Shown: positions 3,251 to 64,000, numbered from the stretch's first letter. The stretch: DNA of 64,000 nt from Squalus acanthias (GCA_030390025.1 JASTWF010000033.1:5830001-5894000), one strand, 5' to 3'. Program-made: numbers and translations. Notes: a model not told the origin generated them from the letters alone.

Positions 3251-3711
3251 GTTTCTAGTGTCCTACCAAAGTGCATCGCCTCGCATTCATCGATGTTAAA
3301 GTTCACTTGTCACTTAACTGCGCAGTCTGTGTGTTTTCCAATGTCTATTCTGAGATGTCATGTAGAGAAATGTCTTTTCAATATTTGAAGCAAAGCATCA
3401 GTGAATTGAATAAAAAACAATAATAATTAATAAAGGCAGCCATCTAAAACTGTGTGTGGTTTTGGAATTTTATCAGAAAATCTGAGGATTTATTGCAGAG
3501 TAAACTCCTGGCTTGTCACTTTGTACCACTGCTTTTCGAAGAAGTTGGTGAAGATATTATTTATTTCAAATAACAGAACTGCTCTCCACTTTCCTTCAGC
3601 CTCACTTTGTGACTTTCGATATATGCATCGAACATCGTAAACTCCTCCTCACCCCACCTAATATCCTCAGCTCCTCCCCACCCCATCTAATATCCTCAGC
3701 TCCTCCCCACC

Positions 3712-13622: not shown

Positions 13623-13627
13623 TCTCT

Positions 13628-13645
13628 TGGTGACCGCGGCAGGAC
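13628..13645 (+). promoter_or_regulatory. Primer binding site, tRNA-Arg(UCG)
   Basis: TGGTGACCGCGGCAGGAC, 5 nt after the LTR; 17/18 complementary to the recalled vertebrate tRNA-Arg(UCG) 3' end GTCCTGCCGCGGTCGCCA. Confidence 0.8.
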
Positions 13646-13671
13646 CTGGGTTACAGGAGAGTAAATCAGTC

Positions 13672-15351
13672 ATGGACAGCGCTTCTGGTGAAAGATCCCA
13701 AATGGAGGAAAGGATTTCTTCATATGAGTTTAAGAAGGTTAACGTCACTAAGAAGTGGCTGCCAGGCTTGTTGCGGTCTGAGCGTCCGGTGGACGCAGCG
13801 GCAGAATGGACGGAGGGCCAGGAGCATAGGCGCAGCATTGAAAAGGCGATATGGCTCGTCTGTCTACAAAGACAAGTCCAACTGCTGGATAAGCAGGTTG
13901 CTAAGTTAGAGGCAGAGCTCAGGGAGTCCGAGGCACAGTCAGACGCAAGGGCTGTAGTAGGGAGCTGGTTATGCACGGAGCTAAGGGATGAGAAGCAGAG
14001 AAGAATAAGCCAGGAGGAAACCTTCCGTAAGCATAAGGAGTTCCTGCAATGCCAGGTAACTGAGGCAAAGGGGAACGAGAGGGTGGTTAGGGAGGAGAAC
14101 GCTCGCTTTTCGAGTGAGGTAAAGGTGCTGGGAGAGCAGTTGAAGGATATTCAGGTGGCATACAGAGTCGCCAGCACTAGAGGGTTTGATATGGGTAATC
14201 ATGGTCCTGGCCAGGAGCAGATCCGGAATTTGACCGATGCTCTATCTAAGGCCAAAGGGATGGTCTGCTTGGTAGCTCCGGGAATGGCCCGGGTAGATGA
14301 TGAAGAGCAGGAGGGAGGTAAGGAGGACTGTGAGGTAGAGGAGGACGCTCGACCACCGCCCGAAGTGCCGGGACCAGGACCCATGTGCCCTGTCCGGCAG
14401 CAGAAATACGGTGCGCCCGTAGACGGTCAAGAGCAAGGAGCACTGCAGAGTGACTTCGTGGTCCCGTATACGACCCCCCAGCTGCGGGCAATGGTCTCTA
14501 ACCTGACCAAACTGACCAGCAAAGGGGACCCATCTCTCCATTTTACAGATGTGGAGCAGGTGGGGGGGGATCAATAATTGTAACCAAGCTGAGACAGACA
14601 AATTACTATTATTTTCCCTGGATAGTAGGTTGTACCAGTCGCTCTCAGCGGGTAGCAAGAGGGGGCAGGGTACGTTAGAGTGGATAAAGGATGACATCCT
14701 AGAGGCTATGGACCTCAATGATGGAAGTCCCTTCTCCCGAGTGGAAAGGACACTGCAGTCAGCTGGGGAGACACCGCAGGCTTTCGCGGACAGGCTTTGG
14801 CCCGTCTACCGGAGTGCCTGTGCGGGGGTGCCCGACCGGGCGCAGCTGCAGGGGGAGCCTAGGGCTCATTGGCTGAGGACCCTGGTGGCGAACAGCCTGC
14901 CCAGAATCAAGGCCAAAGCAGAGGGTGGTGCGATTCCAGGGATCCCCAGACCACAGAAGAGAGGGTGATCCGGCAGTTAACTCTCTCTTTTAAGAATGGT
15001 AGGGCTGAGGATGACAAACCAAAGGGCAGAGTACACGAGTTAAAGCCTAGTGGAGGCAACGTTAGAAGAGAGTGGCGCCAGGGAGGGGGTAGCTCAGAGA
15101 AGAAGCAGGGTTGTTATGGGTGTGGGATTAAAGGGCACTGGAGGAAAGACTGCCCAGTCTCTGACAAAAGGAGCGGGAAAGGGGATCCTCCAGCGCCAGT
15201 GCAGAAAGCCGCAGCTGTGGCAGGAAGTAGCACTGATCTGTTCGCGGTATTAGTGGCTGTTCTCCGTGCAGTGTTTCCGGCAGGGCAGGGTAGGGTGGAC
15301 ACGGCAGCGGGCAGCGTACTCCCATCCGCCCCGAACAATCCCGACCGATGA
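13672..15351 (+). pseudogene. gag: gag (N-terminal coiled coil, capsid-like region, one CCHC zinc knuckle), two frameshifts
   Basis: ORFs 13627-14577, 14549-14968 and 14869-15351; CYGCGIKGHWRKDC; frameshift at the G run near 14562-14569. Confidence 0.85.
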
Positions 15352-18300: not shown

Positions 18301-19250
18301 ACAGCCACAGCTTTGTGCACCGCAAGGATTCTAGTGAGAGAAGTGTTCTCCAGGTGGGGGCTACCACGGTATGTGGAGTCCGATCAGGGGATTCACTTCA
18401 CATGTGTGTCATGCAGGCGACTCTGAAGATGCTCGGTATAGAGGGTAAATGGCACGTCGCACACAACCCGCAGTCATCGGGGATTGTGGAGCGGATGAAT
18501 AGGACCATCAAGGAAAGGTTATGGAAGGAGACGGGAGACTCGCCTAGACAATGGGCGGAGGTCTTGACGTTAGTTCTGATGGGGGTCCGAGCCAGCCCGT
18601 CTAGAAGCACAGGGTATTCCCCACATGAGCTCGTGACTGGCAGGGTCATGAGGACGCCCAGCCATGTACTGGCCCCGGTTCTCACGGAAGGTCAGTTGAG
18701 AGAGGTGAACCGGGACAGGTTTGTTAAGAATTTGTTTGAGCATCTCAGACAGATCCATTGGCAGGCTGCCAGTAACATGCGGAAGCAACATCGTAGAAAT
18801 CGTTTATTGCTTGAGCCTCAGAGGCACCACGAGTGGAAGGTCGGAGATCAAGTAATGGTTAGAAACTTCGCCAGGGTAGGGACTTTTGAACCGCTATACA
18901 TGGGACTGTACAGTATCATGGATAGGGCTAGTCCGATGGTATATGCGATCAAAATGCCTCGACGCACTAAGTGGTTCCTTATCAATCAGTGCAAGATTTT
19001 CAACCCTGGGGAAAGAGCTGATAAGAGGAGGAAACAGCAGGGAGTGGTGAGCTGCGCTACAGGTGTGGGTCTCCTGCCCATAATCTGGGACTGTGGGGAG
19101 CCCACAGAGGGACCAGTCGTTCCGCCTGTAGGGGCAGCAGTGAGAAGGTGTGCCAGGATCCCACGGCCGAGGGTGCCGTGGACGCCTCCTTACACACCAT
19201 TGAACGAAGGAAGCAGGAGTCGTAATAGGCCCAGGGTCGAGGAGACCTAG
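15352..19250 (+). pseudogene. pol: pro-pol: protease, RT, tether/first RNase H, second RNase H, integrase; stops and frameshifts
   Basis: LLDTGAS; PIWPVRK..LDISNGFWSIP..LPQGF..YVDDLL; VVYSSRILT..YSNCE; VDGSS..SAQHSEL..SDS..KAHS..GNQQA; GGHPG..CADC, QVDYIGPLP, ESDQG, SSGIVERMNRTIK. Confidence 0.9.
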
Positions 19251-28748: not shown

Positions 28749-29693
28749 ATGACAGGAAGTCTCGGACCCGTTTCATGCTCCTCCTGTGCCATGTGGGAAA
28801 CCAGGGACACTTCCAGTGTCCCTGACAACTACGTGTGCGGGAAGTGTGTCCAGCTGCAGCTCCTGACAGCCCGCATGGCGGTGCTGGAGCTGCGTGTGGA
28901 CTCACTCTGGAGCATGCACGATGCCGAGAACTCGGTGAATCGCTCATTTAGTGAGTTGTCCACACCGCAGGTAAAGGCTAGGACAGACAGTGAATGGGTG
29001 ACCAAGAAGCAGGGCAATATCAGGAAGGTAGTGCAGGAGTCCCCTGTGGTCATCTCCCTCCAAAACAGGTATGCCGCTTTGGATACTGTTGGGGGAGATG
29101 GCCTACCAGGGGAAGGCACTAGCAGCCAGGTTCATGGCACCATGGCTGGCTCTGCTGCACAGCAGGGCGGGAAAAAGAGTGGTAGGGCTATAGTGATAGG
29201 GGACTCAATTGTAAGGGGAATAGACAGGAGTTTCTGTGGCCGCAACCGAGATTCCAGGATGGTATGCTGCCTCCCTGGTGCAAGGGTCAAGGATGTCTCG
29301 GAGCGGCTGCAGAACATTCTGAAGAGGGAGGGTGAACAGCCAGCTGTCGTGGTGCATGTAGGTACCAACGATATAGGTAAAAAGCGGGAAGAGGTCCTAC
29401 AAGCAGAATTTAGGGAGCTAGGAGCTAAATTAAAAAGTAGGACCTCTAAGGTAGTAATCTCTGGATTGCTACCAGGGCCACGTGCTAATCAGAATAGAGA
29501 GAACAGGATAGTGAGATTGAATACGTGGCTTGAGCAGTGGTGCAGGAGGGAGGGATTCAAATTCCTGAGGCATTGGAACCAGTTCTGGGGGAAGTGGGAC
29601 CTGTACAAAAGGGACGGTCTGCACTTGGGCAGGACTGGAACCGATGTCCTCGGGGTAATATTTGCTAAAGCAGTTCGGGAGGATTTAAACTAA
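28749..29693 (+). CDS. CR1 ORF1p: CxxC..CxxC zinc finger, leucine zipper, SGNH/GDSL esterase
   Basis: CSSC..CGKC; IVIGDSIVRG, HVGTND, DGLHL; intact 314 aa. Confidence 0.9.
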   Translation: MTGSLGPVSCSSCAMWETRDTSSVPDNYVCGKCVQLQLLTARMAVLELRVDSLWSMHDAENSVNRSFSELSTPQVKARTDSEWVTKKQGNIRKVVQESPVVISLQNRYAALDTVGGDGLPGEGTSSQVHGTMAGSAAQQGGKKSGRAIVIGDSIVRGIDRSFCGRNRDSRMVCCLPGARVKDVSERLQNILKREGEQPAVVVHVGTNDIGKKREEVLQAEFRELGAKLKSRTSKVVISGLLPGPRANQNRENRIVRLNTWLEQWCRREGFKFLRHWNQFWGKWDLYKRDGLHLGRTGTDVLGVIFAKAVREDLN

Positions 29694-32642
29694 TATGGCA
29701 GGGGAATGGGAACCTATGTAGCGAAACAGGGGGAAGTAATATGCAGTCAGAAACAAATGTTAGAAGGGTGAGAAACAATAGGGGAAGGCCGAGTAAACAA
29801 AGGCAAGAAACACAAAGGGCCATAGTAAATCATAAGTCTAAAAGGACAAAGGATGTTAATAAAACAAGCCTAAAGGCTCTGTGTCTTAATGCAAGGAGTA
29901 TCCGTAATAAGGTGAATGAATTGACTGTGCAAATAGATGTTAACGGATACGATGTGATTGGGATTACAGAGACGTGGCTCCAGAACAATCAAGGCTGGGA
30001 ACTGAACATCCAGGGGTATTCAACATTCAGAAAGGATAGAATAAAAGGAAAAGGGGGTGGGGTAGCATTGCTGGTTAAAGAGGAGATTAATGCAATAGCT
30101 AGGAAGGACATCAGCTTGGAGTATGTGGAATCAATATGGGTTGAGCTGCAGAACACCAAAGGGCAGAAAACGTTAGTGGGAGTTGTGTACAGACCTCCAA
30201 ACAGCAGTAGTGAGGTGGGGGAGGGTATGAAACAGGAAATCAGAGGTGCGTGCAAAAAAGGCACGGCAGTTATCATGGGTGACTTTAATAAGCATATAGA
30301 TTGGGCTACTCAAACTGGAAGCAATACGGTGGAGGAGGATTTCCTGGAGTGTTTAAGGGATGGTTTCCTAAACCAATATGTTGAGGAACCAACTCGAGGG
30401 GAGGCCATCCTGGACTGGGTGTTGTGTAATGAGGAGGGACTAATCAGCAATCTTGTGGTACGAGGCCCCCTGGGGAAGAGTGACCATAGTATGGTGGAGT
30501 TCTACATTAGGATGGAGAAGGAAACAGTTAAGTCAGAGACCATGGTCCAGAACTTAAATAAGGGCAACTTTGAGGGTATGAGGCGTGAATTGGTGAGGTT
30601 AAATTGGCAAGCGATATTTAAGGGGCTATCAGTGGAAGGGCAATGGCAGACATTTAGAGATCGCATGGATGAACTACAACAATTGTACATCTCGGTCTGG
30701 CGTAAAAATAAAAAAGGGAAGGTGGCTCAACCATGGCTAACAAGGGAAATCAGGGATAGTATTAAAACCAAGGAAGTTGCATACAAATTGGCCAGAAGTA
30801 GCAGCAAACCCGGGGACTGGGAGAACTTCAAAACTCAGCAGAGGAGGACGAAGGGTTTGATTAGGGCAGGGAAAATAAAATATGAAAGGAAGCTTGCAGA
30901 GAACATTAAAATGGACTGCAAAAGCTTCTATAAATATGTAAAAAGAAAGAGGTTAGTAAAAACAAACGTAGGTCCCCTGCAGTCGGAAACAGGGGAAGTC
31001 GTAATGGGGAACAAGGAAATGGCAGATCAATTGAACAAGTACTTTGGTTCGGTGTTTACTGTGGAGGACACACACAACCTGCCGGAAATAAAAGGGGTCA
31101 GAGGATCTGGTAAGAGGGAGGAGCTGAGGGAAATCCTTATTAGTCGGGAAAAGGTATTGGGGAAATTGATGGGACTGAAGGCTGAAAAATCCCCGGGGCC
31201 TGATGGTCTGCATCCCAGAGTACTTAAGGAGATGGCCTTGGAAATAGTGGATGCATTGACGATCATTTTCCAACATTCCTTAGACTCTGGATCAGTTCCG
31301 ATGGAGTGGAGGGAGGGAGAAAGCAGGGAATTATAGACCGGTCAGCCTGACATCGGTCGTGGGTAAAATGATGGAAGCAATTATTAAAGATGTCATAACA
31401 GACCATTTGGAAAGTGGCGACATGATATGTCCAAGTCAGCATGGATTTGTGAAAGGGAAATCATGCTTGACAAATCTTCTGGAATTTTTTGAGGATGTTT
31501 CCAATCGGGTGGACAGGGGGGAACCAGTAGATGTGGTGTATTTGGACTTTCAGAAGGCCTTCGACAAGGTCCCACACAAGAGATTGGTGAGCAAAGTTAA
31601 AGCACATGGGATTGGGGGTAATGTGTTGACGTGGATTGAGAACTGGTTGGCACACAGGAAACAAAGAGTAGGAGTAAATAGGTACTTTTCAGAATGGCAG
31701 GCAGTGACCAGCGGGGTACCGCAGGGTTCGGTGCTGGGACCCCAGCTGTTTACATTATATATTAATGATTTGGACGAAGGGATTAAATGTAATATCTCCA
31801 AATTTGCGGATGACACTAAATTGGGAGGCAGTGTGAACAATGAGGAGGATGCTAGGAGGCTACAGAGTGACTTGGACAGGTTGGGTGAATGGGCAAATGT
31901 ATGGCAGATGAAGTACAATGTGGATAAATGTGAGGTTATCCACTTTGGTGGTAAAAATAGAGAGGCGGACTATTACCTGAATGGTGGCAGATTAGGGAAA
32001 GGGGACGTGCAACGAGACCTGGGCGTCATGGTACATCAGTCACTGAAGGTGGGAATGCAAGTGCAGCAGGCAGTCAAGAAAGCAAACGGAATGATGGCCT
32101 TCATAGCAAGGGGATTTGAGTACAGGAGTAGGGAGGTGATGCTACAGTTGTACAGGGCCTTGGTGAGGCCACACCTGGAGTATTGTGCGCAGTTTTGGTC
32201 TCCTAACTTAAGGAAGGACATTCTTGCTATTGAGGGAGTGCAGCGAAGGTTCACTAGATTGATTCCTGGGATGGCCGGATTGACATATCAAGAAAGATTG
32301 GGTCAACTGAACTTGTATCCTCTGGAGTTCAGAAGAATGAGGGGGGATCTTATAGAGACATTTAAAATCCTGACTGGTTTAGACAAATTAGATGCGGGCA
32401 GAATGTTCCCAATGGTAGGGAAAACTAGAACCAGGGGTCACAGTTTAAGGATTAAGGGGAAGCCATTTAGGACTGAGCTGAGGAGAAACTTCTTCACCCA
32501 GAGAGTGGTGAATCTATGGAATTCTCTTCCACAGAAGGTTGTTGAGGCCAGTTCGCTAAATATATTCAAAAGGGAGTTAGATATAACACTCACAACTAAG
32601 GGGATCAAGGGGTATGGCGAGAAAGCAGGAATGGGGTACTGA
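29684..32642 (+). pseudogene. CR1 ORF2 (APE + RT) with a frameshifting deletion near 31310
   Basis: ORFs 29741-31336 and 31359-32642; VANVTPLFKK motif missing at the break. Confidence 0.9.
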
Positions 32643-36791: not shown

Positions 36792-37454
36792 GTAAACATT
36801 CTAGGAATTCCTCCTCCACGGTATTTTTACTAATTTGGTTAGCCCAATCTATATGTAAATTAAAGTCACCCATGATGACTGCTGTGCCCTTACTGCATGC
36901 TTCTCTAATTTCCCTTTTAATGCCGTCCCCAACCTCCGTATTGCTGTTTGGAGGTCTATATACCACTCCCACTAACGTTTTCTGCCCCTTGTTATTTCTC
37001 AGTTCTACCCATACAGATTCCACATCATCAGAGCTAATATCCTTCCTTTCAATTGTGTTAATCCCCTCTTTAACCAGCAATGCTACCCCACCTCCCTTTC
37101 TTTTTTGCCTATATTTCCTAAATATTGAATAACCCTGCATGTTGAGTTCCCAGCCTTGGCCACCCTGGAGCCATGTTTCTGTAATCCCAATCAAATCGTA
37201 TTCATTTACCTCTATTTGTGCAGCTAATGCATCCACCTTGTTCCGAATGCTCCTTGCATTAAGACACAAAGCCTTCAGGCTTGTTTTTTTAACGCTCTCA
37301 GACCTATATGAATTATTATTTACTGTGACCATGTTTGATTAAAACCGTTGAGTTCTTTGCCTTCTACTTTTGTTTTTCTCCTTCCTGTCTTTAGCTTTTA
37401 TACTTATTTCCCTTTCCTCTGTCTCCCTGCTCAGGTTCCCAACCCCATGCCACT

Positions 37455-38396
37455 TTAGTTTAAACCCTCCCCAACAGCACTAGCAAACACTCCCCCTAGG
37501 ACATCGGTCCCGGCCCTGCCCAGGTGCAGACCGTCCCGTTTGTACTGGTCCCACCTCCCCCAGAACCGGTTCCAATGTCCAAGGAATTTGAATCCCTCCC
37601 CCTTGCACCATTCTTCTAGCCACGTATTCATTTGAAATATCCTCCTATTTCTACTCTGACTAGCATGTGGCACTGGTAGCAATCCTGAGATTACTACCTT
37701 TGAAGTCCTCTTTTTTAATTTACCTCCTAACTCCCTATATTCTGCTTTAAGGACCTCATCCCGTTGTTTACCTATATCGTTGATGCCTATGTGCACCACG
37801 ACAACTGGCTGTTCGCCCACCCCCTCCAAAGTGTTCTGTAGCCGCTCCGAGACGTCCTTGACCCTTGCACCAGGGAGCCAACACACCATCCTGGAGTCTC
37901 GATTGCGGCCGCAGAAACGCCTATCTATTCCCCTTACAATTGAATCCCCTATCACTATAGCTCTTCCACACTTTTTCCTCCCAGCCTGTGCAGCAGAGCC
38001 ACCCATGGTGCCAGGAAGTTGGCTGCTGCCGCCTTCCCCTGATAAGTCATCCCCCCCAACAGCATCCAAAGTGTTTGAGAGGGGAATGGCCACAGGGGAC
38101 CCCTGTACTACCTGCCTGCACCTCTTACTCTGCCTGGTGGTCACCCATTCACTTCCTGCCTGTACACCCTTTACCTGCGTTGTGACCAACTCGCTAAACG
38201 TGTTATTCACGACGTTCTCAGCGTCGCGAATGCTCCAATATGCATCCAGCCGCAGCTCCAGCGCCGCAATGCTGTCCGTCAGTAGCTGCAGCTGGATACA
38301 TTTCCCACACACATGGTCGTCAGGGACACAGGAAGTGTCCCTGATTTCCCACATATTGCAGGAGGAGCATATCACGGCGCCGAGCTCTCCTGACAT
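37455..38396 (-). CDS. CR1 ORF1p (zinc finger, zipper, SGNH esterase)
   Basis: CSSC..CGKC, GDSIVRG, DGLHL; 313 aa. Confidence 0.9.
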   Translation of the reverse strand: MSGELGAVICSSCNMWEIRDTSCVPDDHVCGKCIQLQLLTDSIAALELRLDAYWSIRDAENVVNNTFSELVTTQVKGVQAGSEWVTTRQSKRCRQVVQGSPVAIPLSNTLDAVGGDDLSGEGGSSQLPGTMGGSAAQAGRKKCGRAIVIGDSIVRGIDRRFCGRNRDSRMVCWLPGARVKDVSERLQNTLEGVGEQPVVVVHIGINDIGKQRDEVLKAEYRELGGKLKKRTSKVVISGLLPVPHASQSRNRRIFQMNTWLEEWCKGEGFKFLGHWNRFWGRWDQYKRDGLHLGRAGTDVLGGVFASAVGEGLN

Positions 38397-42639: not shown

Positions 42640-45620
42640 CTTGCTCACCGGGCTCCGAGTGTGCTGGCTTGAGTCAGTCAACCGACACTTTTTCGATCCT
42701 GTTGCCCACTTGCAGGGTGAAAAATTTGTCCCCAGCCTGTAGCACCTTGTAGGGCCCGTCGTACGGGGGTTGGAGGGGTCCACGGACGAAAACAAACCGT
42801 GCCTGGTGCAGGCTTAGTGGGACGTGTGAGGTGGATTCGCCATGTCGGGCAATGGGCAACGGGGCGAACTGCAGCGCCGGTGAGGCGAAGTCGTGGTGTT
42901 GCTGGTCGGCTGACCAGGGTGTCGTGGCGGTGGGCAGGAACTCGCCGGGTACGTGCAGCGGCTGACCTTACATGAGCTCTGCTGCCGATGCGTGGAGGTC
43001 TTCTTTAACCATGGTGCGCAGGCCGAAGAGGACCCACGGAAGTCGGTCGGTCCAGGCGCCGTCTTGGATGCTGGCTCGAAGAGATGCCTTCAATGATCTG
43101 TGGAACTGCTCACACAGTCCGTTGGCTTGGGGGTGGTATGCTGTGGTGCGGTGAATGGTCACCCCGAGATTGCGTGCAACAGCGGTCCAGAGTTCAGAGG
43201 TAAATTGCGGACCTCTGTCCGACGTCATGTCGGAAGGGACGCCGAACCGTGCGACCCAGGTGCTGACGAAGGCTCTGGCGATGTCGGCGGTGGTGGTAGA
43301 GGTCAGTGGAATTGCCTCAGGCCAGCGTGTGGTGCGGTCAACGATGGTCAGCAAGTGCGTGTGGCCTTGCGACGGCGGCAGGGGCCCGACGATGTCCATG
43401 TAGATGTGGTCGAATCTCCGCGAGGGGACGGTAAACTCGTCGAGGGGTGCTTTGGTGTGTTGCTGTACCTTGGCCCGTTGGCAGGCTAGGCAGCAGTTGG
43501 CCCAAGTACGCACATCCTTGCGAAGGCCGCACCAGACGAAGCGGTTGGCTACCAATTTGATGGATGCGCGGGCACCGGAGTGGGAGAGGTTGTGGAGAAT
43601 GTCGAATACCCGGCGGCGCCAGGACGCTGGGACGACGGGCCGAGGTTGACATAGGGATATGTCGCACTTGACCATGACTGCGGTCGGGCCACAGGCGACG
43701 TCGGCCAGGCGTAGCCCGGGTAGGTTGGTGGGTGCAGAGAGCAGATCAGGGTCGGTGATCTGGTCTGCTGCGAGTTGAGCGTAGTCGACTGCTAGGTGTG
43801 CGGCGTAGATGGCGGGGCGGGAGAGTCAGTCGGCTACCACATTGTCTCGGCCGGAGATGTGTTGGATGTCCGTGGTGAACTCGGACACTGCCGCGAGCTG
43901 GCGCTGCTGCCTGGCAGACCAGGGGTCGGTTGTCTTTGCCATTGCGAATGTCAGGGGCTTGTGGTCGACAAACGCCGTGAAGGGCTGGCCGTCAAGCAAA
44001 AACTGGAACTGGCGGACCGCAAGGAAAAGCGCGAGGAGCTCGCGGTCAAAGGTGCTGTACTTGACCTCCGGGGGGCGTAGTTGGCGGCTGAAGAAGGCAA
44101 GTGGTTGCCAGGCACCGTCGACCCATTGCTCATACATGGCGCCGACCGCGTGGTCGGAGGCGTCCGTGGTGAGCGCTACCCTGGCATTGGTCCGTGGGTG
44201 CGCGAGCAGGGTGGCCGTTGGCGAGCGCGGTCTTGGAGGAGTCGTAGTCGGCTGACGCGTCTGCCGTCCATTCGACTGCCATCTTGCCGCTCCTGCCCCA
44301 GAGGGCTTCATACAGGGTCCTCATGAGGAACGCCGCTTTGGGGATGAAGCTGTCATGAAATTCACCATCCCAAGGAACTCCTGGAGGCCTTTGATGGTGG
44401 TGGGGCAGGGAAATTGTTGGACGGCCTGCACCTTGGTAGGCAGGGGAATGGCCCCAGCATGGGTGATGTGGTGGCCGAGGAAGTCGATCTTGTCCAGGTC
44501 GAACTGGCATTTGGCTGGGCTGAGGATGAGCCCGTGTTTGCTGAGCCGCCCAAACAGGATGCGGAGGTGTTCCAGGTGTTCCTGCTTGGAGGAACTGCCT
44601 ACCAGGATGTCGTCCAGGTAGACGAACAGGAACATCAGGTCCCGAAGGACCGAGTCCATGAGCCGTTGGAATGCCTGGGCCGCGTTTTTGAGGCCGAAGG
44701 GCATCCGCAGGAACTCGAACAGGCCGAAGGGGGTGATTACGGCCATCTTGGGGACGTCCGCGGGGTGGATGGGGACTTGGTGGTAGCCGCGCACCAGGTC
44801 GACCTTGGAAAACACTGAGCGGCTGGCCAGTCTAGCCGAGAAGTCCTGAATGTGCGGCACGGGGTACCGATCAGGGGTGGTGGCGTAATTGAGGCGGCGG
44901 TAATCCCCGCAGGGGCGCCAACCTCCGCCTGGTTTGGGGGCGATGTGGAGTGGGGAGGCCCAGGGACTGTTGGAGCGGCGGATGATGCCGAGCTGTTCCA
45001 TGGTGGCAAACTTGGTCCGCGCGATCTCCAGTTTGGCTGGGTCCAGCCTGCGGGCGTGGGCGTACACTGGGGGGCCTGTGGTGGGGATGAAGTGTTCCAC
45101 CCAGTGTTTGGCGGCCACCGCGGAGACGGTCGGATTGGTAAGGGCCGGGAATTCGGCCAGGAGTGCCGAGTAGTCATCCATGGCCAGGGCGTGGCACTGT
45201 GACGCCATGTCGGCGGGTTGACGGGGGGCCATGGCGCCCAGGATGGGGGACATGGTGTTCATGTCCACGAGGCGGTGACAAGGGATGTCTACCAGTAGGC
45301 CGTGGGTGCACAGGAAATCTGCGCTGATGAGAGGGGAGAGCACCTTGGCAGTGATGAACTCCCATCAGTAGCGGGGACCAGCGAGGGCGAGGGTGACTGT
45401 CCGGGTGCCATACGTCCGGATTTCCGAGCCGTTAGCAGCAGCAAGCGCCGGTCCTCGTACGCCCTTTTGGATGTCGAGGGAGGAGGCCGCGATGATGCTG
45501 TGCTGAGCCCTAGTGTCGCACAGGAACCAGCGGCCGGTTTTGTCATTCGTGACGTACAGCAGGGAGCTAGCGTGTCCCACGGCCTTCGTGGGGGCTTGTA
45601 CGGGGGCGGACTTCAAAGTG
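42640..45620 (-). pseudogene. pol: Gypsy pol (PR-RT-RH-IN), frameshifted
   Basis: ORFs 45365-45616, 44321-45343, 43826-44311, 42968-43675 and 42674-42859 (PYDGPYKV GPY/F motif). Confidence 0.9.
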
Positions 45621-46306
45621 CAGGGAGGTGTGCACCGTTGTGCCCTGGCGCCGAACCGTGCGTGGTAGTAAAAGTGGCCCAGGTTAGTGGGGCGCGAAGG
45701 CCACGTGGGCCTGGTGGTTTATCCTTGTGGCCGCGTGGTGAAGGTGAGGGGCGCGCCCAGGCATTGGCTGCCAGGTCCGGAGTGACGTCGCGGCTGGAGT
45801 GAGCGGACAGCAGCTTGTCGGCCTCATCGGCCAGGGCTTCCAGGTGCGTGAGGCCGGATGCCACGATCGCTGGGCGGATGCTGAGAGGGAGCTGGCGGAT
45901 GAACAGCATGCGGAAGAGGGATCTGGGTGGGCTCTCGTCGGTGAGGGAGTGCATGTGGGAGAGGAGGTCTGACGGTGAGGCATCACCGAGGCCTGGAAGG
46001 TCGAGGAGGTGGCAGTTTCGCTGATATGCCGAGGCCGTAATTTTTTTAAGGAGCGCTGCCTTGAGATGTGCATAATTGCCTTCCTCTGGTTGGTTCTGCA
46101 GCGCTGTCCAAACCTTCGAAACTGTGGCGCTACCGAGTGATGTGATGAGGTAGTCATACTGCGTCCCATCTGTGGTGGTGTTTCACAGCCGGAAGCGGGA
46201 TTTAGCTTGGAGAAACCAGGCTTAGGGCTGGTTTTCCCAAAACTCAGGCAGTTTCACAGAAACTGCGTTCATGTCCGCCATTGCAGTGCTCGAAATACGT
46301 TCTGAG

Positions 46307-52997: not shown

Positions 52998-55527
52998 ATC
53001 CCCCCTTTTGGTACTTGGCCCTTGCCCAAGTTAAACCACATGTATAAGCATCGCTGTGTCTCCTGCCCCATGCGGTGATCAGTCGCTGGTTCGGGAGGCC
53101 CTGCATATCCATCATGTTTAGAGCAAACTTGTGTTTTCCAACTCTTTCCGACTCGCTTTAGCTCTTTGTTTGTTCTGTTTCTTTTTACAAGCGGTGCATG
53201 CTGCCATTCCCTATCCTATAGCCATGACTAGCTGTACTATCACTAATATTTGAGAAATGATGCAGATCCTTGGTTGTATGTAGACATTCATTCCTCAATC
53301 CCACAGCTTCTCATACCACGGGACTTCCTGTAGCTCTACCTCTATGTCCCTTTCTCGTTCCCCAAGATTCCTGTGCAACACTATGTATTGTTTCACCATC
53401 TTACTTAAATCCTCTTTCATTTCTTCCAGATTCTCTTGCAGGCCGGGTATTGGGGCCCCTAACGGATCTTCATAATTGACCAACTCATCCCTTAGACTAT
53501 CTGGCACATTTAGTTTTATCTCCTCCCTTGAATGTACATACACCAATCTGGTGTGTCCAATTGTCACAGGGATCTTTGCATAAAGCAGAAGTTAGGCATT
53601 GTGATTGCACATACAAGGTTACTATATTGGTACTCAGTCTCTGTGATGGCTATAGAATACTCCCCTTCACCTCTATATCCCGAGCGGGTGTGATGGTGAT
53701 CAACATGTGATAATTCGAACACACACCCCTCTGTATTATTATAGCCGCACTCATCCTTATGGCCTTCTCCTACCGGATGTCGACATATTGTAAGCGTGCC
53801 TTTCCCGTGGCATCTGTTTAGGGGGACTCCTCTCATAGTACCATTCTTTCTTTTGGCATAGGTATCAAATGGATAGCATTGTAGGTATGTCTCACCCCTC
53901 ACTTTGCCTATGCTTGTTACCTGGTATTGTGGGTATGGAGTCGTGTCTAGTCCCACCACTGGTATCAGGAGTACCATGCCTATCATTGCTGTCACTTCTG
54001 CTTTACATTTTTGTATCACCGGATATACTCTGGTCATCTCATTGAGGGTACAAGCACTCCGAGGGCCTGGATTCTGGCTCATACCATAGTGCTGTGTGCT
54101 GTTAATCCAGTCTGGTACCTTGCCTCGCTGTATCTGTGCCAGATTGTGTTTTAACTGTCCGGTGATCCATTGGTCATAGGCATGACACAAGCCTTCTCCC
54201 TATCTCGTCTTTTGCCTGTTCCTCATCTCTATTGTTTAGTTTGTTGATAACGCTGGCATGGTCCTCTATAACCTTGATTCACTCGAGTAATTTCCTTATC
54301 GTATGTCCTCCCAACTCTGATCCTTGTCGAACCAAACCAGTTTCCTTCTCTAAAATCTGTTGCAATACCCTTTGTAGTCGTTCCACACGACTCTGGACAC
54401 CTTGAATATCTAGGGCATTAATGAATGATGTCCCCGTGTTTATTCCCGTGAGTATATCGATTCCTAAGCTCATCTTAATCCTTTGTTGGAATGCAGCATG
54501 TCCCCTGAATCTAGTGGCCCCTGTCGCATTAGCAGCTTGGCTAATTACATTCTTTATCATATGTGCATACAATTCTCTAGTTTTAGTGAACCTTTCACAC
54601 TATCCTGGCCATTGTAACATGGTTCAGTTTATTAGTACCGGTACAATTTTGTGTCTCACGTTATCATACAATTGTTCTCTGTCAGTAAATAATACTGGTA
54701 CATTCATAGGTCCAGGTTTCATATCTGGACATTGTAGCATCCTTGGTTTGCATGTCTCTTCTTTCTCTGTATTGGGAGCTGTGGATGAGTCTCCGACTGC
54801 GATTGTTCCATTAAAACATGGTGCTTCCTCATCATGTAACACGGTGGCATAGTGGTTAGCACTGGTGCCTCACAGCGTCAGAGACCCGGGTTCGAATCTG
54901 ACCTCGGGTGACTGTCTGTGTGGAGTTTGCAAATTCTCCCTGTGTCTGCGTGGGTTTCCTCCGGGTGCTCCGGTTTCCTCCCACAGTCCAAAAATTTGTG
55001 GGTTAGGTTGATTTGGCTATGATAAATTGACCCTTAGTGTTAGGGGGGATTAAATATGTGGGGTTATGGGGATAGGATGGGATATACATAGATACATAGA
55101 AGATAGGAGCAGGAGTAGGCCATCCGGCGCTTCGAGCCTGCTCCGCCATTTAATGAGATCATGGCTGATCCTCCAATTCAGTATCCCGTCCCCGCCTTCT
55201 CTCCGTAACCCTTAACCCCTTTTGCCTGTAGAAATACATCTAATTCCCTCTTAAATATATTTAATGAGCTGGCGTACACTGCCCTCTGTGGCAATGAGTT
55301 CCACAGGTTCACCACCCTCTGAGTGAAGAAATTCCCCCTCATTTCTGTCCTAAATGGTTTAGCCCTTATCCTTAAATTATGTCCTCTAGTTCTGTTCTCA
55401 CCCGCCAAGGGAAACATTCCTTCTGCATCTAGTCTGTCTAGACCTGTCATAATTTTATACACTTCTATGAGGTCCCCTCTCAATCTTCTAAACTCCAGTG
55501 TGTACATCCCTAAACTACATAGTCTCT

Positions 55528-58500
55528 CATAGATACATAGATACATAGAAGATAGGAGCAGGAGTAGGCCATCCGGCCCTTCGAGCCTGCTCCGCCATTT
55601 AATGAGATCATGGCTGATCCTTCAATTCAGTATCCCGTCCCCGCCTTCTCTCCGTAACCCTTAACCCCTTTTGCCTGTAGAAATATATCTAATTCCCTCT
55701 TAAATATATTTAATGAGCTGGCGTACACTGCCCTCTGTGGCAATGAGTTCCACAGGTTCACCACTCTCTGAGTGAAGAAATTCCCCCTCATTTCTGTCCT
55801 AAATGGTTTAGCCCTTATCCTTAAATTATGTCCTCTAGTTCTGTTCTCACCCGCCAAGGGAAACATTCCTTCTGCATCTAATCTGTCTAGACCTGTCAGA
55901 ATTTTATACACTTCTATGAGGTCCCCTCTCAATCTTCTAAACTCCAGTGTGTACATCCCTAAACTACATAGTCTCTCCTCATAGGTCAATCCCGCCATTC
56001 CTGGTATCAGCCTGGTGAATCGCCGCTGCACCCCCTCCATGGCAAGAACATCTTTCCTCAGATGAGGCGACCAAAACTGTACACAGTACTCGAGGTGTGG
56101 TCTCACCAGTGCCCTGTACAGCTGCAGCAAGGTATCCCTGTTCCTGTATTCCAACCCTTTTGCTATGAAGGCCAGCATACCGTTTGCCTTCTTGACCGCC
56201 TGTTGCACCTGCATGCTCGCCTTCAGTGACTGGTGTACAAGAACACCCAGGTCTCTCTGTACTTCCCCCTCTCCCAATTTATTGCCATTTAAATAATAAT
56301 TTGCCCTCCCGTTCCTGCACCCAAGGTGGATAACTTCGCACTTGTCCACATTATAGTGCATCTGCCATTTATCCGCCCAATCACCCAGTCTGTCCAAATC
56401 GCTCTGGAGCTTCCTGGTCTCCTCCTCTGAGCCCACCCCCCCTCCTAGTTTAGTGTCGTCTGCAAATTTGGAAATGCTGCATTCGACTCCCTGATCCAGG
56501 TCATTAATATAAATTGTGAACAGCTGGGGACCCAGGACAGATCCCTGTGGTACCCCACTTGTTACTGCCTGCCATTCAGAAAATGAGCCGTTTATTCCAA
56601 CTCTCTGTTTTCTATCTGACAGCCAGTTCTCTATCCACGTCAATACTTTCCCCTTTATCCCATGAGCTTCAATTTTCCATGCTAATCTTTTATGTGGGAC
56701 CTTATCGAAGGCCTTTTGGAAGTCCAGGTACACCACATCTACTGGCTCTCCCCCATCTATTTTACCAGTTACTCCCTCAAAAAATTCCAATAGATTAGTC
56801 AAGCACGATTTACCCTTTGTAAATCCATGTTGACTCTGTCCTATCCTGTCCCCATTTGCTAAGTGCTCGGCTATTTCATCCTTAATGATGGACTCCAGCA
56901 TTTTGCCCACAACTGATGTAAGGCTTACAGGTCTGTAATTACCTGCTTTTTCCCTACCCCCCTTTTTGAATAGTGGGGTAACGTTAGCTACCCTCCAATC
57001 CATGGGCACTGTTCCCGAGTCTAATGAATTCTGAAAAATCATGCTTAGTGCATCCGCTATCTCTAGGGCCACCTCCTTCAGTACCCTAGGATGCATGTTA
57101 TCAGGCCCTGGGGATTTGTCCGCCTTCAATCCCTTTAGCTTCCTTAACACCATATCCTTAGAGATATTGATTTGCGTCAGTTCCTCCTTTGCCAATGTCC
57201 CTATTTTTCCCGATATCCCAGGGAGGTTTTTTGTGTCTTCCTTCGTAAAGACTGACCCAAAGTATGCATTTAGTTGGTCTGCCATTTCCTTATTTCCCAT
57301 TATATATTCCCCCGTATCTGACTGCAATGGACCAACTTTGGTTTTCACCAGTCTTTTCCTCTTGATATACTTATAAAAGCTTTTGGAGTTAGTTTTTATA
57401 TTTTCCGCCAGCTTGCTTTCGTAAGCTATTTTGCCCTTCTTGATTAAGCCCTTTGCCCTCCTTTGCTTTATCTTAAACTGTTCCCAATCTTCCGCTCTGG
57501 CGCGTTTTTTGGCTATTTTATACGCCCTATCTTTGGATTTTATGCTGTCTCTAATTTCCCCTGTTATCCACGGTTGAGTCACCTTTTTAGATTTCCTTTT
57601 ATGCCAGATTGGTATAAACAATTTTTGCAATTTTGTCATTCTATCTTTAAATGCTTGCCATTGTTTATCTACCTCCAGTCCTCCCAGGAACGTTGTCCAA
57701 TCAGACCTACTCAGTTCCCGTCTAATGGCATCATAATTCCCCTTGTTTAAATTCAGGACCTGAGTCTCTGAGTCAATTTCTTCGCTCTCCATTTCGAGTG
57801 AGAAATCGATCATGTTATGATCGCTCTGACCCAAGGGTCCCCGTACAACAAGATTACTAATTAGTCCCTTCTCATTGCACAGTACCCAGTCCAATATAGC
57901 CTGTTCCCGAGTTGGTTCCTCGACATATTGATCCAGATAACCATCCCTTAAACACTCAAGGAATTCCTCCTCCTCATTATTTTTACTGATTAGGCTAGTC
58001 CAATCTATATGTAAGTTAAAGTCACCTATGATGACAACTGTGCTCTTATTGCACGCTTCTCTAATTTCCCTCGTGATGCCCTCCCCAACCTCTATTTTAC
58101 TATTTGGAGGCCTATATACCACTCCTATTAATGTTTTTCGCCCCTCGCTATTTCTTAGCTCCACCCATATAGATTCTGTATTAACTGAGTTAATATCCTT
58201 CCTTTCAATTGCATTTATCCCCTCTTTTACCAGCAATGCTACCCCTCCTCCCTTTCTTTTTTGTCGATCCTTCCTAAATACTGAATACCCCTGTATGTTA
58301 AGCTCCCAGCCCTGCTCACCCTGCAACCATGTTTCCGTAATCCCAATTAGATCATAATTATTAACCTCTATTTCCACAGCTAATTCATCTACCTTGTTCC
58401 TGATGCTTCTCGCATTAAGGTATAAAACCCTCAGGCTTTTTTTATGCTCACATTTTTTATGAATTAGTTTGGCCCTTTGTTTTTTGTTCCTCTCCTTTTT

Positions 58501-58776
58501 ACCATTTATTTCTGTCTGCCTTTCACTTTCCTCTATTTCACTACATGGGTTTCTAGCCCCCTGCCATACTAGTTTAAATGCTCCCGAACTGCTTTATCAA
58601 AATTTACCCCGAGAACCTCAGTTCCATCTTTGCACAGGTGTAGACCGTCCCTTTTGTATAGGTCACACCTACCACAAAACTGGTCCCAATGCCTCAAAAA
58701 TTTAAAACCCTCCCTCTTACACCACTGCTCAAGCCACGTATTTAGCCTAACTATCCTGTTCTCTGTACTCTTACTA
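55528..58776 (-). mobile_element. Inner CR1 of the same subfamily, 5'-truncated in ORF1
   Basis: Own tail at 55528; near-identical to the outer copy. Confidence 0.9.
55627..58578 (-). CDS. Uninterrupted CR1 ORF2 (APE + RT); no AUG upstream of the endonuclease
   Basis: The 916-aa track ORF starts at a GTG; the frame stays open 67 more codons up to TTTAAAC at the ORF1 end. Confidence 0.88.
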   Translation of the reverse strand, partial: FKLVWQGARNPCSEIEESERQTEINGKKERNKKQRAKLIHKKCEHKKSLRVLYLNARSIRNKVDELAVEIEVNNYDLIGITETWLQGEQGWELNIQGYSVFRKDRQKRKGGGVALLVKEGINAIERKDINSVNTESIWVELRNSEGRKTLIGVVYRPPNSKIEVGEGITREIREACNKSTVVIIGDFNLHIDWTSLISKNNEEEEFLECLRDGYLDQYVEEPTREQAILDWVLCNEKGLISNLVVRGPLGQSDHNMIDFSLEMESEEIDSETQVLNLNKGNYDAIRRELSRSDWTTFLGGLEVDKQWQAFKDRMTKLQKLFIPIWHKRKSKKVTQPWITGEIRDSIKSKDRAYKIAKKRARAEDWEQFKIKQRRAKGLIKKGKIAYESKLAENIKTNSKSFYKYIKRKRLVKTKVGPLQSDTGEYIMGNKEMADQLNAYFGSVFTKEDTKNLPGISGKIGTLAKEELTQINISKDMVLRKLKGLKADKSPGPDNMHPRVLKEVALEIADALSMIFQNSLDSGTVPMDWRVANVTPLFKKGGREKAGNYRPVSLTSVVGKMLESIIKDEIAEHLANGDRIGQSQHGFTKGKSCLTNLLEFFEGVTGKIDGGEPVDVVYLDFQKAFDKVPHKRLAWKIEAHGIKGKVLTWIENWLSDRKQRVGINGSFSEWQAVTSGVPQGSVLGPQLFTIYINDLDQGVECSISKFADDTKLGGGVGSEEETRKLQSDLDRLGDWADKWQMHYNVDKCEVIHLGCRNGRANYYLNGNKLGEGEVQRDLGVLVHQSLKASMQVQQAVKKANGMLAFIAKGLEYRNRDTLLQLYRALVRPHLEYCVQFWSPHLRKDVLAMEGVQRRFTRLIPGMAGLTYEERLCSLGMYTLEFRRLRGDLIEVYKILTGLDRLDAEGMFPLAGENRTRGHNLRIRAKPFRTEMRGNFFTQRVVNLWNSLPQRAVYASSLNIFKRELDIFLQAKGVKGYGEKAGTGY

Positions 58777-61700
58777 TCTCGCCATTCCTGGTATCAGCCT
58801 GGTGAATCGCCGCTGCACCCCCTCCATGGCAAGAACATCTTTCCTCAGATGAGGCGACCAAAACTGTACACAGTACTCGAGGTGTGGTCTCACCAGTGCC
58901 CTGTACAGCTGCAGCAAGGTATCCCTGTTCCTGTATTCCAACCCTTTTGCTATGAAGGCCAGCATACCGTTTGCCTTCTTGATCGCCTGTTGCACCTGCA
59001 TGCTCGCCTTCAGTCACTGGTGTACAAGAACACCCAGGTCTCTCTGTACTTCCCCCTCTCCCAATTTATTGCCATTTAAATAATAATTTGCCCTCCCGTT
59101 CCTGCACCCAAGGTGGATAACTTCGCACTTGTCCACATTATAGTGCATCTGCCATTTATCCGCCCAATCACCCAGTCTGTCCAAATCGCTCTGGAGCTTC
59201 CTGGTCTCCTCCTCTGAGCCCACCCCCCCTCCTAGTTTAGTGTCGTCTGCAAATTTGGAAATGCTGCATCCGACTCCCTGATCCAGGTCATTAATGTAAA
59301 TTGTGAACAGCTGGGGACCCAGGACAGATCCCTGTGGTACCCCACTTGTTACTGCCTGCCATTCAGAAAATGAGCCGTTTATTCCAACTCTCTGTTTTCT
59401 ATCTGACAGCCAGTTCTCTATCCACGTCAATACTTTCCCCTTTATCCCATGAGCTTCAATTTTCCCTGCTAATCTTTTATGTGGGACCTTATCGAAGGCC
59501 TTTTGGAAGTCCAGGTACACCACATCTACTGGCTCTCCTCCATCTATTTTACCAGTTACTCCCTCAAAAAATTCCAATAGATTAGTCAAGCACGATTTAC
59601 CCTTTGTAAATCCATGTTGACTCTGTCCTATCCTGTCCCCATTTGCTAAGTGCTCCGCTATTTCATCCTTAATGATGGACTCCAGCATTTTGCCCACAAC
59701 TGATGTAAGGCTTACAGGTCTGTAATTACCTGCTTTTTCCCTACCCCCCTTTTTGAATAGTGGGGTAACGTTAGCTACCCTCCAATCCATGGGCACTGTT
59801 CCCGAGTCTAATGAATTCTGAAAAATCATACTTAGTGCATCCGCTATCTCTAGGGCCACCTCCTTCAGCACCCTAGGATGCATGTTATCAGGCCCTGGGG
59901 ATTTGTCCGCCTTCAATCCCTTTAGCTTCCTTAACACCATATCCTTAGAGATATTGACTTGCGTCAGTTCCTCCTTTGCAAATGTCCCTATTTTTCCCGA
60001 TATCCCAGGGAGGTTTTTTGTGTCTTCCTTCGTAAAGACTGACCCAAAGTATGCATTTAGTTGGTCTGCCATTTCCTTATTTCCGTTATATATTCCCCCG
60101 TATCTGACTGCAATGGGCCAACTTTGGTTTTCACCAGTCTTTTCCTCTTGATATACTTATAAAAGCTTTTGGAGTTAGTTTTTATATTTTCCGCCAGCTT
60201 GCTTTCGTAAGCTATTTTGCCCCTCTTGATTAAGCCCTTTGTCCTCCTTTGCTCTATCTTAAACTGTTCCCAATCTTCCGCTCTGGCGCTTTTTTTGGCT
60301 ATTTTATACGCCCTATCTTTGGATTTTATGCTGTCTCTAATTTCCCCTGTTATCCACGGTTGAGTCACCTTTTTAGATTTCCTTTTATGCCAGATTGGTA
60401 TAAACAATTTTTGCAATTTTGTCATTCTATCTTTAAATGCTTGCCATTGTTTATCTACCTCCAGTCCTCCCAGGAACGTTGTCCAATCAGACCTACTCAG
60501 TCCCGTCTAATGGCATCATAATTCCCCTTGTTTAAATTCAGGACCTTAGTATCTGAGTCAATTTCTTCGCTCTCCATTTCGAGTGAGAAATCGATCATGT
60601 TATGATCGCTCTGACCCAAGGGTCCCCGTACAACAAGATTACTAATTAGTCCCTTCTCATTGCACAGTACCCAGTCCAATATAGCCTGTTCCCGAGTTGG
60701 TTCCTCGACATATTGATCCAGATAACCATCCCTTAAACACTCAAGGAATTCCTCCTCCTCATTATTTTTACTGATTAGGCTATTCCAATCTATATGTAAG
60801 TTAAAGTCACCTATGATGACAGCTGTGCTCTTATTGCACGCTTCTCTAATTTCCCTCGTGATGCCCTCCCCAACCTCTATTTTACTATTTGGAGGCCTAT
60901 ATACCACTCCTATTAATGTTTTTCGCCCCTCGCTATTTCTTAGCTCCACCCATATAGATTCTGTACTAACTGAGTTAATATCCTTCCTTTCAATTGCATT
61001 TATCCCTTCTTTTACCAGCAATGCTACCCCTCCTCCCTTTCTTTTTTGTCGATCCTTCCTAAATACTGAATACCCCTGTATGTTAAGCTCCCAGCCCTGC
61101 TCACCCTGCAACCATGTTTCCGTAATCCCAATTAGATCATAATTATTAACCTCTATTTCCACAGCTAATTCATCTACCTTGTTCCTGATGCTTCTCGCAT
61201 TAAGGTATAAAACCCTCAGGCTTTTTTTATGCTCACATTTTTTATGAATTAGTTTGGCCCTTTGTTTTTTGTTCCTCACTCTTTTACCATTTATTTCTGT
61301 CTGCCTTTCACTTTCCTCTATTTCACTACATAGGTTTCTAGCCCCCTGCCATACTAGTTTAAATGCTCCCGAACTGCTTTATCAAAAATTACCCCGAGAA
61401 CATCAGTTCCATCTTTGCACAGGTGTAGACCGTCCCTTTTGTATAGGTCACACCTACCACAAAACTGGTTCCAATGCCTCAAAAATTTAAAACCCTCCCT
61501 CTTACACCACTGCTCAAGCCACGTATTTAGCCTAACTATCCTGTTCTCTGTACTCTTACTAGCACGTGGCACTGGTAGTAATCCAGAGATTACTACCTTC
61601 GAGGTCCTACTTTTTAGCTTGGCTCCTAACTCCCTAAATTCTACTTGTAGGACCTCTTCCCTTTTTTTAGCTACGTCGTTGGTACCAACATGTATCACGA

Positions 61701-62238
61701 CAACTGGCTGTTCCCCCTCCCCCTCCAGAATGTTCTGCACCCGCGCCGAGACATCCTTGACCCTTGCACCAGGGAGGCAACATACCATCCTGGAGTCTCG
61801 GTCGCGACCACAGAAACCCCTATCTATTCCCCTTACAATCGAATCCCCTATTACTATAGCCCTGCCACTCTTTTTCCCTCCCTTCTTTGCAACAGAGCCA
61901 GTCATGCTGCCATGAGCCTGGCTGCTGGTGCCTTCCCCCGATGAGTCATCCCCCCCGACAACAGCACCTAAGGCGGTGAACCTGTTGCTAAGGGAGACAA
62001 CCCCAGGGGATTTCTGCACTACCTTCCTGCCCTTGCTCTGCCTTTTGGTCACCCATGTACTATCTACGCTGGCCTTAACCTGCGGTGTGACCAACTCACT
62101 AAATGTGTTATCCACAACCCTCTCAGAATCGTGGATGCTCCAAAGTGAGTCCATCCGCAGCTCAAGAGCCACCACCCTCCTTAAATGCTGTTCACCTGGG
62201 AGCTTCCCACCTGGTCCGCTTCCGGTCTCGTCTCTCCG

Positions 62239-62619
62239 GACACTGGCCTCTGCAAAAAAAAGCCCGCGAAAGTGAGTTTAAATACTCACTGTGCTGCTGC
62301 TCTCTCCGCTCCCGACACTGGCCTCTGCAAAAAAAAGCCCGCGAAAGTGAGTTTAAATACTCACTGTGCTGCTGCTCTCTCCGCTCCCGACACTGGCCTC
62401 TGCAAAAAAAGCCCGCGAAAGTGAGTTTAACTACTCACTGTGCTGCTGCTCTCTCCGCTCCCGACACTGGCCTCTGCAAAAAAAGCCCGCGAAAGTGAGT
62501 TTAAATACTCACTGTGCTGCTGCTCTCTCCGCTCCCGACACTGGCCTCTGCAAAAAAAGCCCGCGAAAGTGAGTTTAAATACTCACTGTGCTGCTGCTCT
62601 CTCCGCTCCCGACACTGGC
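62239..62619 (-). repeat. Five 74-75-bp monomers forming the CR1 5' UTR
   Basis: Starts at 62239, 62314, 62389, 62463, 62537 and 62611; each contains the hairpin AGTGAGT-ttaaat-ACTCACT. Confidence 0.92.
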
Positions 62620-62899: not shown

Positions 62900-64000
62900 G
62901 CAGAAGCCTGGTCGTCAGCAGAGGTTAGTTTATCTCTGGTGTTTATTCCATTGATCCTGTGGGATTTAAGGTCAGATGGGTTATTGCTGTATCGTTTATA
63001 ATTGAGTCCAATGTTTCCATCTCTCTTTACCCTCATATCTATACATGCACACATGTCGCTGGTCATGATAACCTCAAATGGTCCAGTCCATCTTTGTGAG
63101 AATCCCGATCTCTCTGGCAATATTTTAACAAATACCTGCTCGCCCACCTTGGGTAGGGGCTCCGAGGCCCCCTGCTTTTGATATTTTTATCTCTGATGTC
63201 TTGTTCTTTAACTTCTTGTTTGAGCTCCTTCAATTGATTATCCAATGTTTGTACGCATTTCCTAATTTTATCTTTTAAGGGTCCTAGTCCCTCACTGCCA
63301 GATGCTACTCCTTCCGGCAGACGCATGGCTCGTCCAGTCATGAGTTCATATGGTGTCAGTCCGGTCACCCTGTTTGGGGTGGCTCTCAGTCTCATCAGGG
63401 TACACGGAAGGACATCCACCCATCCCTGTCCGGTTTCGGCTATGGCCTTGCTTAAGGCTGTTTTCAGGTTCTGTTCATTCGCTCTACCATGCCTGAGCTT
63501 TGCGGATGATAGGGTATATAGAACTTCTGTCTTACTCCTAGTAACTTACAAGTTTCTTTCATTACCTTTCCCGTAAAGTGGGTACCTTGATCTGAATCTA
63601 TTTACAACGGGACCCCACATCTCGGTATCACGGTCGTATGCAAATATTCGGGCCACAGTCTGAGCACTACAGTCTTTGGTGGGGAATGCTTCCACCCACC
63701 TTGTAAACTGGTCTATGATCACTAAACAGTATTTCTTCCCTCTACTGTTATTCTACCAACTGCTATTGGTGTAGGCATCTCTGTGTCCTGCCGCTGCTCT
63801 TGCTGCCTGATCAGCTAACATATTTCCTTTTTGTTGCTCGCTCACTATCTTGCAGTGTGCCTTTATTTTAATCACTGCTACCTCGTCTGCTCCTTTTACC
63901 GCTTCTACTCGGTGTCTCACTACTTCCTCCTGCTGTATTTCTCCTCCTCTGGAGGTTACATATCCTCTCCTATTCATATAACCATGTACTACCCCAAACA
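62900..64000 (-). pseudogene. pol: pol 3' part (RNase H, integrase) of the second ERV; integrase HHCC region apparently deleted
   Basis: ORFs 63753-63977, 63063-63419 and 62896-63147; YCLVIIDQFTRWVEAFPT near 63680-63735. Confidence 0.82.

Follow-up and report, generated by a model that had tools for sequence, protein, structure and literature searches.

An intact CR1 ORF2 with no start codon ahead of its endonuclease and a conserved candidate -1 frameshift site at the junction with ORF1

The window, as we term the whole stretch of 64,000 nt that was analysed, is repeat-rich cartilaginous-fish DNA, and the best named homologues of its CR1 ORF1 are shark and ray proteins. It contains five CR1 ORF1/ORF2 junctions that belong to three subfamilies: A (58.6 and 61.4 kb), B (29.7 kb) and C (6.8 and 37.5 kb). 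These elements are built as canonical vertebrate CR1s: ORF2 encodes an APE endonuclease followed by a reverse transcriptase (Pfam), ORF1 is of the esterase type with an N-terminal Cys motif and a coiled coil (the N-terminus is deleted in the subfamily A copies and was taken from the 28.7-kb and 37.5-kb copies), and the 3' end is an 8-nt tandem repeat without poly(A). The same ORF1 Cys motif, coiled coil and SGNH esterase, and the same APE and RT domains in ORF2, are described for canonical vertebrate CR1 (subgroup 7 in PMC4120745; Canonical-CR1 in PMC13343379), and the passages of these papers on the group mention neither frameshifting nor a missing start codon. The following features of subfamily A were mapped:

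55627-58593, minus strand: ORF2 frame with linker, APE endonuclease and reverse transcriptase, 988 codons from stop to stop (Pfam Exo_endo_phos at 60-259, RVT_1 at 546-756)
58569-58781, minus strand: last 70 codons of ORF1 (end of the esterase), 58-kb copy
58594-58599, minus strand: two stops closing the ORF2 frame upstream
58572-58578, minus strand: U_UUA_AAC heptamer, encoding the final Leu-Asn of ORF1; candidate site of a -1 shift
58569-58571, minus strand: ORF1 stop TAG, directly 3' of the heptamer
58553-58567, minus strand: out-of-frame mini-ORF of 4 codons, its ATG one base past the stop (58567)
58557-58561, minus strand: G-tract whose first base lies 11 nt past the heptamer; candidate 3' element
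58420-58578, minus strand: 53 codons without ATG, from the heptamer to endonuclease motif I
58405-58419, minus strand: endonuclease motif I (LNARS), aligning to residues 13-17 of the L1 endonuclease in the N-terminal strand (E 0.15, weak alone)
57811-57813, minus strand: first in-frame ATG, codon 261, directly after SDHN
61354-62170, minus strand: 61-kb copy, ORF1 encoding an SGNH esterase without its N-terminus, and junction with the heptamer at 61363-61357

The two subfamily A copies are 98.85% identical over 2,782 nt and therefore count as one observation. Only the 58-kb copy has an intact ORF2, its ORF1 being 5'-truncated at about 58781; the 61-kb copy carries two frameshifts in ORF2 and lacks the N-terminus of ORF1. 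The 58-kb copy (about 58781-55541) is nested at RT codon 868 of the 61-kb copy (55084-62619, minus strand) in the same orientation, and its insertion site shows a small target deletion and a 4-base microhomology with no clear duplication. The 5' end of the 61-kb copy (62234-62619) is made of 5.2 copies of a 74-bp tandem repeat, each unit carrying on the sense strand a small palindrome, with one arm similar to a splice donor, and a pyrimidine-tract motif similar to an acceptor. Several shark CR1 consensus sequences from the literature likewise have donor-like motifs in their 5' regions.

In the 58-kb copy, ORF1 ends as ...H L N stop on T_TTA_AAC TAG while the -1 frame reads FKLVWQG... and meets no stop up to YLNARS (58419). 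The first-pass annotation had described an ORF2 frame open from the heptamer through a basic linker into the APE domain with no ATG, and such a frame was indeed found, open over 988 codons. This frame overlaps the sense codons of ORF1 by only 22 nt, in which there is no ATG; turtle CR1 likewise has a 22-bp overlap of the two ORFs. The linker core is 28% Lys+Arg and its only near-cognate codons in this copy are ATA (twice), ATT and CTG. Motif I, whose Asn is needed for L1 mobility, follows the linker. As annotated, the first Met comes after SDHN; it lies at codon 261, past the last endonuclease motif, so that initiation there would produce a protein devoid of the whole endonuclease (Pfam 60-259). 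The ATG found just after the ORF1 stop is out of frame as stated: it lies in the third frame, opens only 4 codons and is a by-product of the ORF2 codons for Val-Trp; the 6.8/37.5-kb subfamily lacks it. The second copy has the same junction as the 58-kb copy, as had been noted. The lack of Met over 53 codons has a probability of 0.27 at the Met frequency of ORF2 itself and is not rare in itself.

An in-frame ATG could have been present in the subfamily consensus and lost locally. As a stand-in for a genome-wide consensus, we used the majority contig of run X10 (an RNA run by guess), one of 4 sequencing runs out of 24 compared with 61050-62200. This 421-nt contig (mean word depth 468) spans 61051-61471, that is the junction, the linker and the start of the endonuclease; it differs from the window once, at 61280, and the difference creates no ATG. 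At this position X5 and the raw X23 RNA reads agree with X10 in all covering records; run X21 contributed 15 partial reads only.

The frame thus read without ATG was analysed for selection. Comparison of the endonuclease of the 58-kb copy with those of subfamilies B and C gave dN/dS values of 0.16/1.67 and 0.09/0.79, respectively, which indicates that the domain is under purifying selection (dN/dS about 0.1). In the linker, dN/dS was about 0.7-1.2, that is no constraint at the protein level, and synonymous sites differ by 28-41% among A, B and C. The probability of obtaining an open linker by shuffling was 0.03, 0.01, 0.01 and 0.32 in the four lineages compared. As ORF2 is selected, as its first Met follows the endonuclease and as the majority sequence has no ATG, initiation at AUG is excluded for subfamily A ORF2; the view that AUG reinitiation cannot yield a full ORF2p here thus holds both locally and in the majority. 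The same annotation took the start-less ORF2 as support for frameshifting or non-AUG initiation. This is supported, but the missing ATG by itself picks neither, because the frame and the open linker would be the same under frameshifting as under non-AUG or stop-coupled initiation. The choice between them rests on conservation of the heptamer.

The junctions of the two other subfamilies were compared with a distant relative, L001, a metagenome locus:

29684-29743, plus strand: subfamily B, heptamer, TAA, linker ATG at codon 20
6663-6797, minus strand: subfamily C, heptamer, TAA, linker ATG at codon 45
37330-37464, minus strand: second copy of subfamily C, same junction, decayed, stop at linker codon 42

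The linker ATGs had been said to be at non-equivalent positions, and codon 20 in B and codon 45 in C do occupy different alignment columns. In L001, the same heptamer and stop are followed by an open linker of 34 codons, and the first Met comes after motif I; its ORF1 is 36% identical and synonymous sites are saturated. Of the 19 metagenome loci matched, 6 of which were viewed, one (L001) is a CR1 of vertebrate type; a search of viral contigs for relatives gave no match, and 7 weak prokaryotic matches in GTDB were left out of the analysis. Two CR1 ORF1 proteins, P0008 and P0335, are filed as Pseudomonas and Klebsiella SGNH hydrolases and are probably vertebrate contamination in bacterial assemblies.

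The heptamer and the presence of a stop directly after it are identical at the 6/6 junctions analysed here. In the portion of the PMC13343379 supplement holding published consensus sequences, 18 of the 23 matches to heptamer plus stop are ORF1 ends, followed by TAG (11), TAA (6) or TGA (1). The hosts, as read from abbreviated names, are elephant shark, catshark, dogfish, sawfish, stingray, bowfin, halosaur, coelacanth, frog, bearded dragon, alligator and crocodile, and the junctions were judged by eye in the first 400 nt of each consensus. Variant strings were found at no ORF1 end in the same material (0/7 matches for the AAT variant and 0/30 for six other variants). When upstream anchors were used instead, 8 of the 21 places listed out of 30 lie in an ORF1 end and all 8 carry the heptamer. 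As they come from motif searches on error-rich consensus text, these counts are no unbiased census. No synonymous variant of the heptamer was found at a junction, either among those analysed or in the consensus searches.

Conservation was also apparent in proteins. Among ORF1 homologues reaching the last helix, 134/149 end in LN, including coelacanth, tortoise, turtle, tegu/lizard and many bird records. Of the 15 others, nine belong to a single divergent group, mostly from catfish, that we take for L2-type, and three more result from read-through or indels. The residue ahead of LN is variable (G, T, S, A, Y, D, C, F), a T-ending codon being available for it in 49/50 and 85/85 cases, and the position preceding that residue is Glu or Gln in 28/50. 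Fused gene models from stingray (P0032, P0121) and crane (P0347) read FKL and stay open to the endonuclease; FKL in one frame and LN-stop in the other force TTTAAA(C/T) plus a stop. The constancy of the heptamer contrasts with the Leu columns of the esterase half, where only 1/12 invariant ones keep one codon across the four lineages; all three invariant Asn columns (3/3) keep one codon, which weakens the AAC part of this local codon control. In the window as in L001, a stop (TAA, TAG or TGA) interrupts the ORF2 frame precisely 6 codons ahead of the heptamer (6/6 junctions analysed); it was dropped as a universal feature since the crane model stays open further upstream. The longer fused homologues were rejected as true fusions, being only indel or gene-model fusions, and no natural family fused in frame was found (4 matches among 8,000 scored candidates). 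Five ORF2 records of bird/reptile type (P0141, P0149, P0168, P0176, P0250; host inferred from P0347 and P0357) begin at a Met just after endonuclease motif I and are probably N-terminally truncated annotations.

Combined, these results make programmed -1 frameshifting yielding an ORF1p-ORF2p fusion the probable mode of ORF2 expression. An X_XXY_YYZ heptamer is present in the correct phase, the second ORF lies in the -1 frame, and the site is conserved beyond what protein coding demands. Ribosomes would translate ORF1 (zinc-finger/coiled-coil region and SGNH esterase) and most would stop after Leu-Asn; a minority would slip back by one base on U_UUA_AAC and read on through the basic linker. We infer that this slippage occurs and that its rate is modest. 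The product would be an ORF1p-linker-endonuclease-RT fusion of about 1,300 residues, similar to Gag-Pol, and the linker ATGs seen in other subfamilies would merely happen to encode internal Met residues. For mammalian ribosomes, U_UUA_AAC is named as one of the most shifty heptamers (PMC5009743). As in retroviral gag-pol and coronavirus-type systems, the heptamer is of the X_XXY_YYZ form and the enzyme ORF in the -1 frame has no start of its own (PMC5009743); unlike in those systems, no pseudoknot was detected, the stop is immediate, a G-tract stands at +11 and there is no protease to cut the fusion.

The sequence downstream of the heptamer was examined for a stimulator. Folding z-scores ranged from -1.4 to +1.0 and no Rfam match was obtained, hence no stimulatory fold was detected, and neither a stable hairpin nor a pseudoknot was found 5-9 nt downstream, pseudoknots being covered without direct modelling. 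A hairpin shared by the shark elements (-6.2 kcal/mol) has no compensatory change and is missing in L001, and searches for G-quadruplexes, long-range pairing and downstream folding gave nothing common to all lineages. The G-tract begins 7 nt after the stop in 6/6 junctions analysed (its first G is mutated in one) and, judged by eye, 4-7 nt after the stop in most of the consensus junctions of the PMC13343379 supplement, a set rich in deletions. Within the tract, third codon positions are kept at G, suggesting a signal acting at the RNA level. In the predicted fold of ORF1p, the last helix of the esterase ends at the shift site. PRRSV frameshifting is driven by a protein-bound motif 11 nt 3' of the site, a spacing that the +11 G-tract resembles, and a stop just 3' of the shift site matters in one umbravirus (PMC5009743). 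The most likely stimulator is the neighbouring stop combined with the G-tract at +11, a weak hairpin, or both, rather than a classical pseudoknot.

Several observations count against frameshifting: the lack of a stimulatory structure, the occurrence of TAATG (an ORF2-frame ATG overlapping the stop) at 3/18 consensus junctions, one in catshark and two in dogfish (PMC13343379 supplement), the Met codons of the linker, present somewhere in the linker of many relatives, the unconstrained linker protein, and the search that yielded no natural family fused in frame. The impaired activity of human L1 upon engineered fusion of ORF1 to ORF2 was also counted against a fusion.

The main alternative, which we consider improbable, is termination-coupled reinitiation of the SART1/human L1 type, in which ribosomes restart at a -1-frame codon overlapping the stop, a non-AUG codon being tolerated, and make ORF2p as a separate protein. 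The frame and the open linker would be no different under this model, which would use ATG at the three TAATG junctions and finds codons one mismatch from ATG at the overlap in the other two subfamilies of the window (ATA and AAG) and at two consensus junctions. It is also the accepted model for bicistronic LINEs, in the sections of PMC2881922 and PMC3708506 concerned. SART1, with its UAAUG, and human L1 make ORF2 from a bicistronic RNA in dependence on ORF1 translation (PMC2881922, PMC3708506, PMC5009743), and the frame relation in CR1 is the same as in SART1; whereas these two keep an AUG, subfamily A has none and displays a conserved slippery heptamer instead. No UAAUG-type ATG overlaps the ORF1 stop in the ORF2 frame at the six junctions analysed (0/6), the overlap codon being GTA in subfamily A and GAA in L001, and TAG, the stop at 11/18 consensus junctions, cannot form an overlapping ATG. 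In the 61-kb copy, whose sequence there is that of the majority, the 120 nt upstream contain no UGGGA of the calicivirus type. Nor does reinitiation explain why the slippery heptamer should be invariant where the stop varies. Frameshifting and reinitiation could both operate, in different lineages.

Internal initiation at a near-cognate codon of the linker (GTG at codon 29 in the majority, or CTG at codon 49), through an IRES or rescanning, is very unlikely. Codon 29 is GTG in the 61-kb copy and in the 29.7-kb subfamily but GAG in the intact 58-kb copy, and the CTG at the start of the endonuclease is shared by subfamilies A and C, whereas L001 has neither codon. An IRES has been discussed for LINE ORF2 in parts of PMC3894237; no structure was found here, and both the heptamer and a frame open all the way back to it would be left unexplained.

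A spliced or slipped transcript joining an upstream start to ORF2 is still harder to credit. The donor-like and acceptor-like motifs of the 74-bp 5' repeat could be used for such a joint, but the repeat unit has no ATG, the linker is purine-rich and its only AG with a pyrimidine tract sits inside motif I. Neither an intron-ended joint nor a junction indel is among the variants listed for X23 (read depth of about 90 at the junction), X5 and X10, a listing of 40 of 231 variant rows, without 478 loose ends, at a reporting threshold of 8%, which leaves aside joints below 8% or with exons beyond 61050-62200. Equally hard to credit is that subfamily A lost a start codon still seen as a linker ATG in B and C, and that other CR1s mobilise it in trans, given its 988 open codons under selection, copies as close as those of the window, the lack of ATG in L001 as well and the non-homology of the linker ATGs of B and C.

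Programmed -1 frameshifting is not a new mechanism for non-LTR elements, since TRE5-A and TRE3-A of Dictyostelium, APE-type elements of another clade with another ORF1, are stated to need it for ORF2 (PMC5911963). Our literature search found no account of it for CR1; the founding CR1 papers, outside the reach of the search, may propose it. The sections covered of PMC4120745, PMC3708506, PMC4255032, PMC3905857, PMC8665684, PMC4316615, PMC2881922, PMC2734521, PMC5633606, PMC8535693, PMC11835228, PMC3894237 and PMC13343379 hold no statement of frameshifting at a CR1 junction, and CR1 is not mentioned in the first 300,000 characters of PMC5009743, on frameshifting (the scope was the same for PMC11835228). 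The supplements of PMC8665684 and PMC4120745 contain no junction sequences. Chicken CR1 ORF2p is given as about 95 kDa in a passage of PMC2734521.

PMC3894237 calls the translation of LINE ORF2 an open and important question, and CR1-group elements, according to the portion of PMC13343379 used, dominate most vertebrate genomes and make up 22-34% in sharks and rays. With a start-less yet selected ORF2 beside an invariant slippery site, the question can be put to the test by means of a short reporter insert. If it takes place, frameshifting would set the ORF1p:ORF2p ratio and, by way of the ORF1 coiled coil, keep the enzyme tethered to the RNP; ORF2 annotations, and the way CR1 assay constructs are designed, would have to be corrected, and a widespread chromosomal -1 frameshift signal without a pseudoknot would be added to those known. 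More tentatively, and with some doubt, all esterase-type CR1s of jawed vertebrates, from chimaeras to birds, might make ORF2p in no other form than a Gag-Pol-like fusion; the -1 frameshift behind it would need no structure and would be driven by the stop next to the site and a protein-binding G-tract 11 nt downstream. The binder would be a host protein recognizing G runs or ORF1p itself, the latter giving feedback control, and CR1 ORF2 proteins that start at an internal Met in databases would then be truncated.

Other repeats are present in the window. A 5.5-kb satellite (7054-12605; 191 copies of a 29-bp unit) abuts a truncated CR1 ORF1, and 2.4 copies of the same unit lie at the other end of this CR1 copy (3642-3712). 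Decayed pieces resembling LTR retrotransposons or retroviruses occur at 13564-19250 (plus strand) and at 42968-46253, 53564-54199 and 62900-64000 (minus strand); their decayed ORFs, judged by eye, are gag-, protease-, RT-, integrase- and possibly envelope-like.
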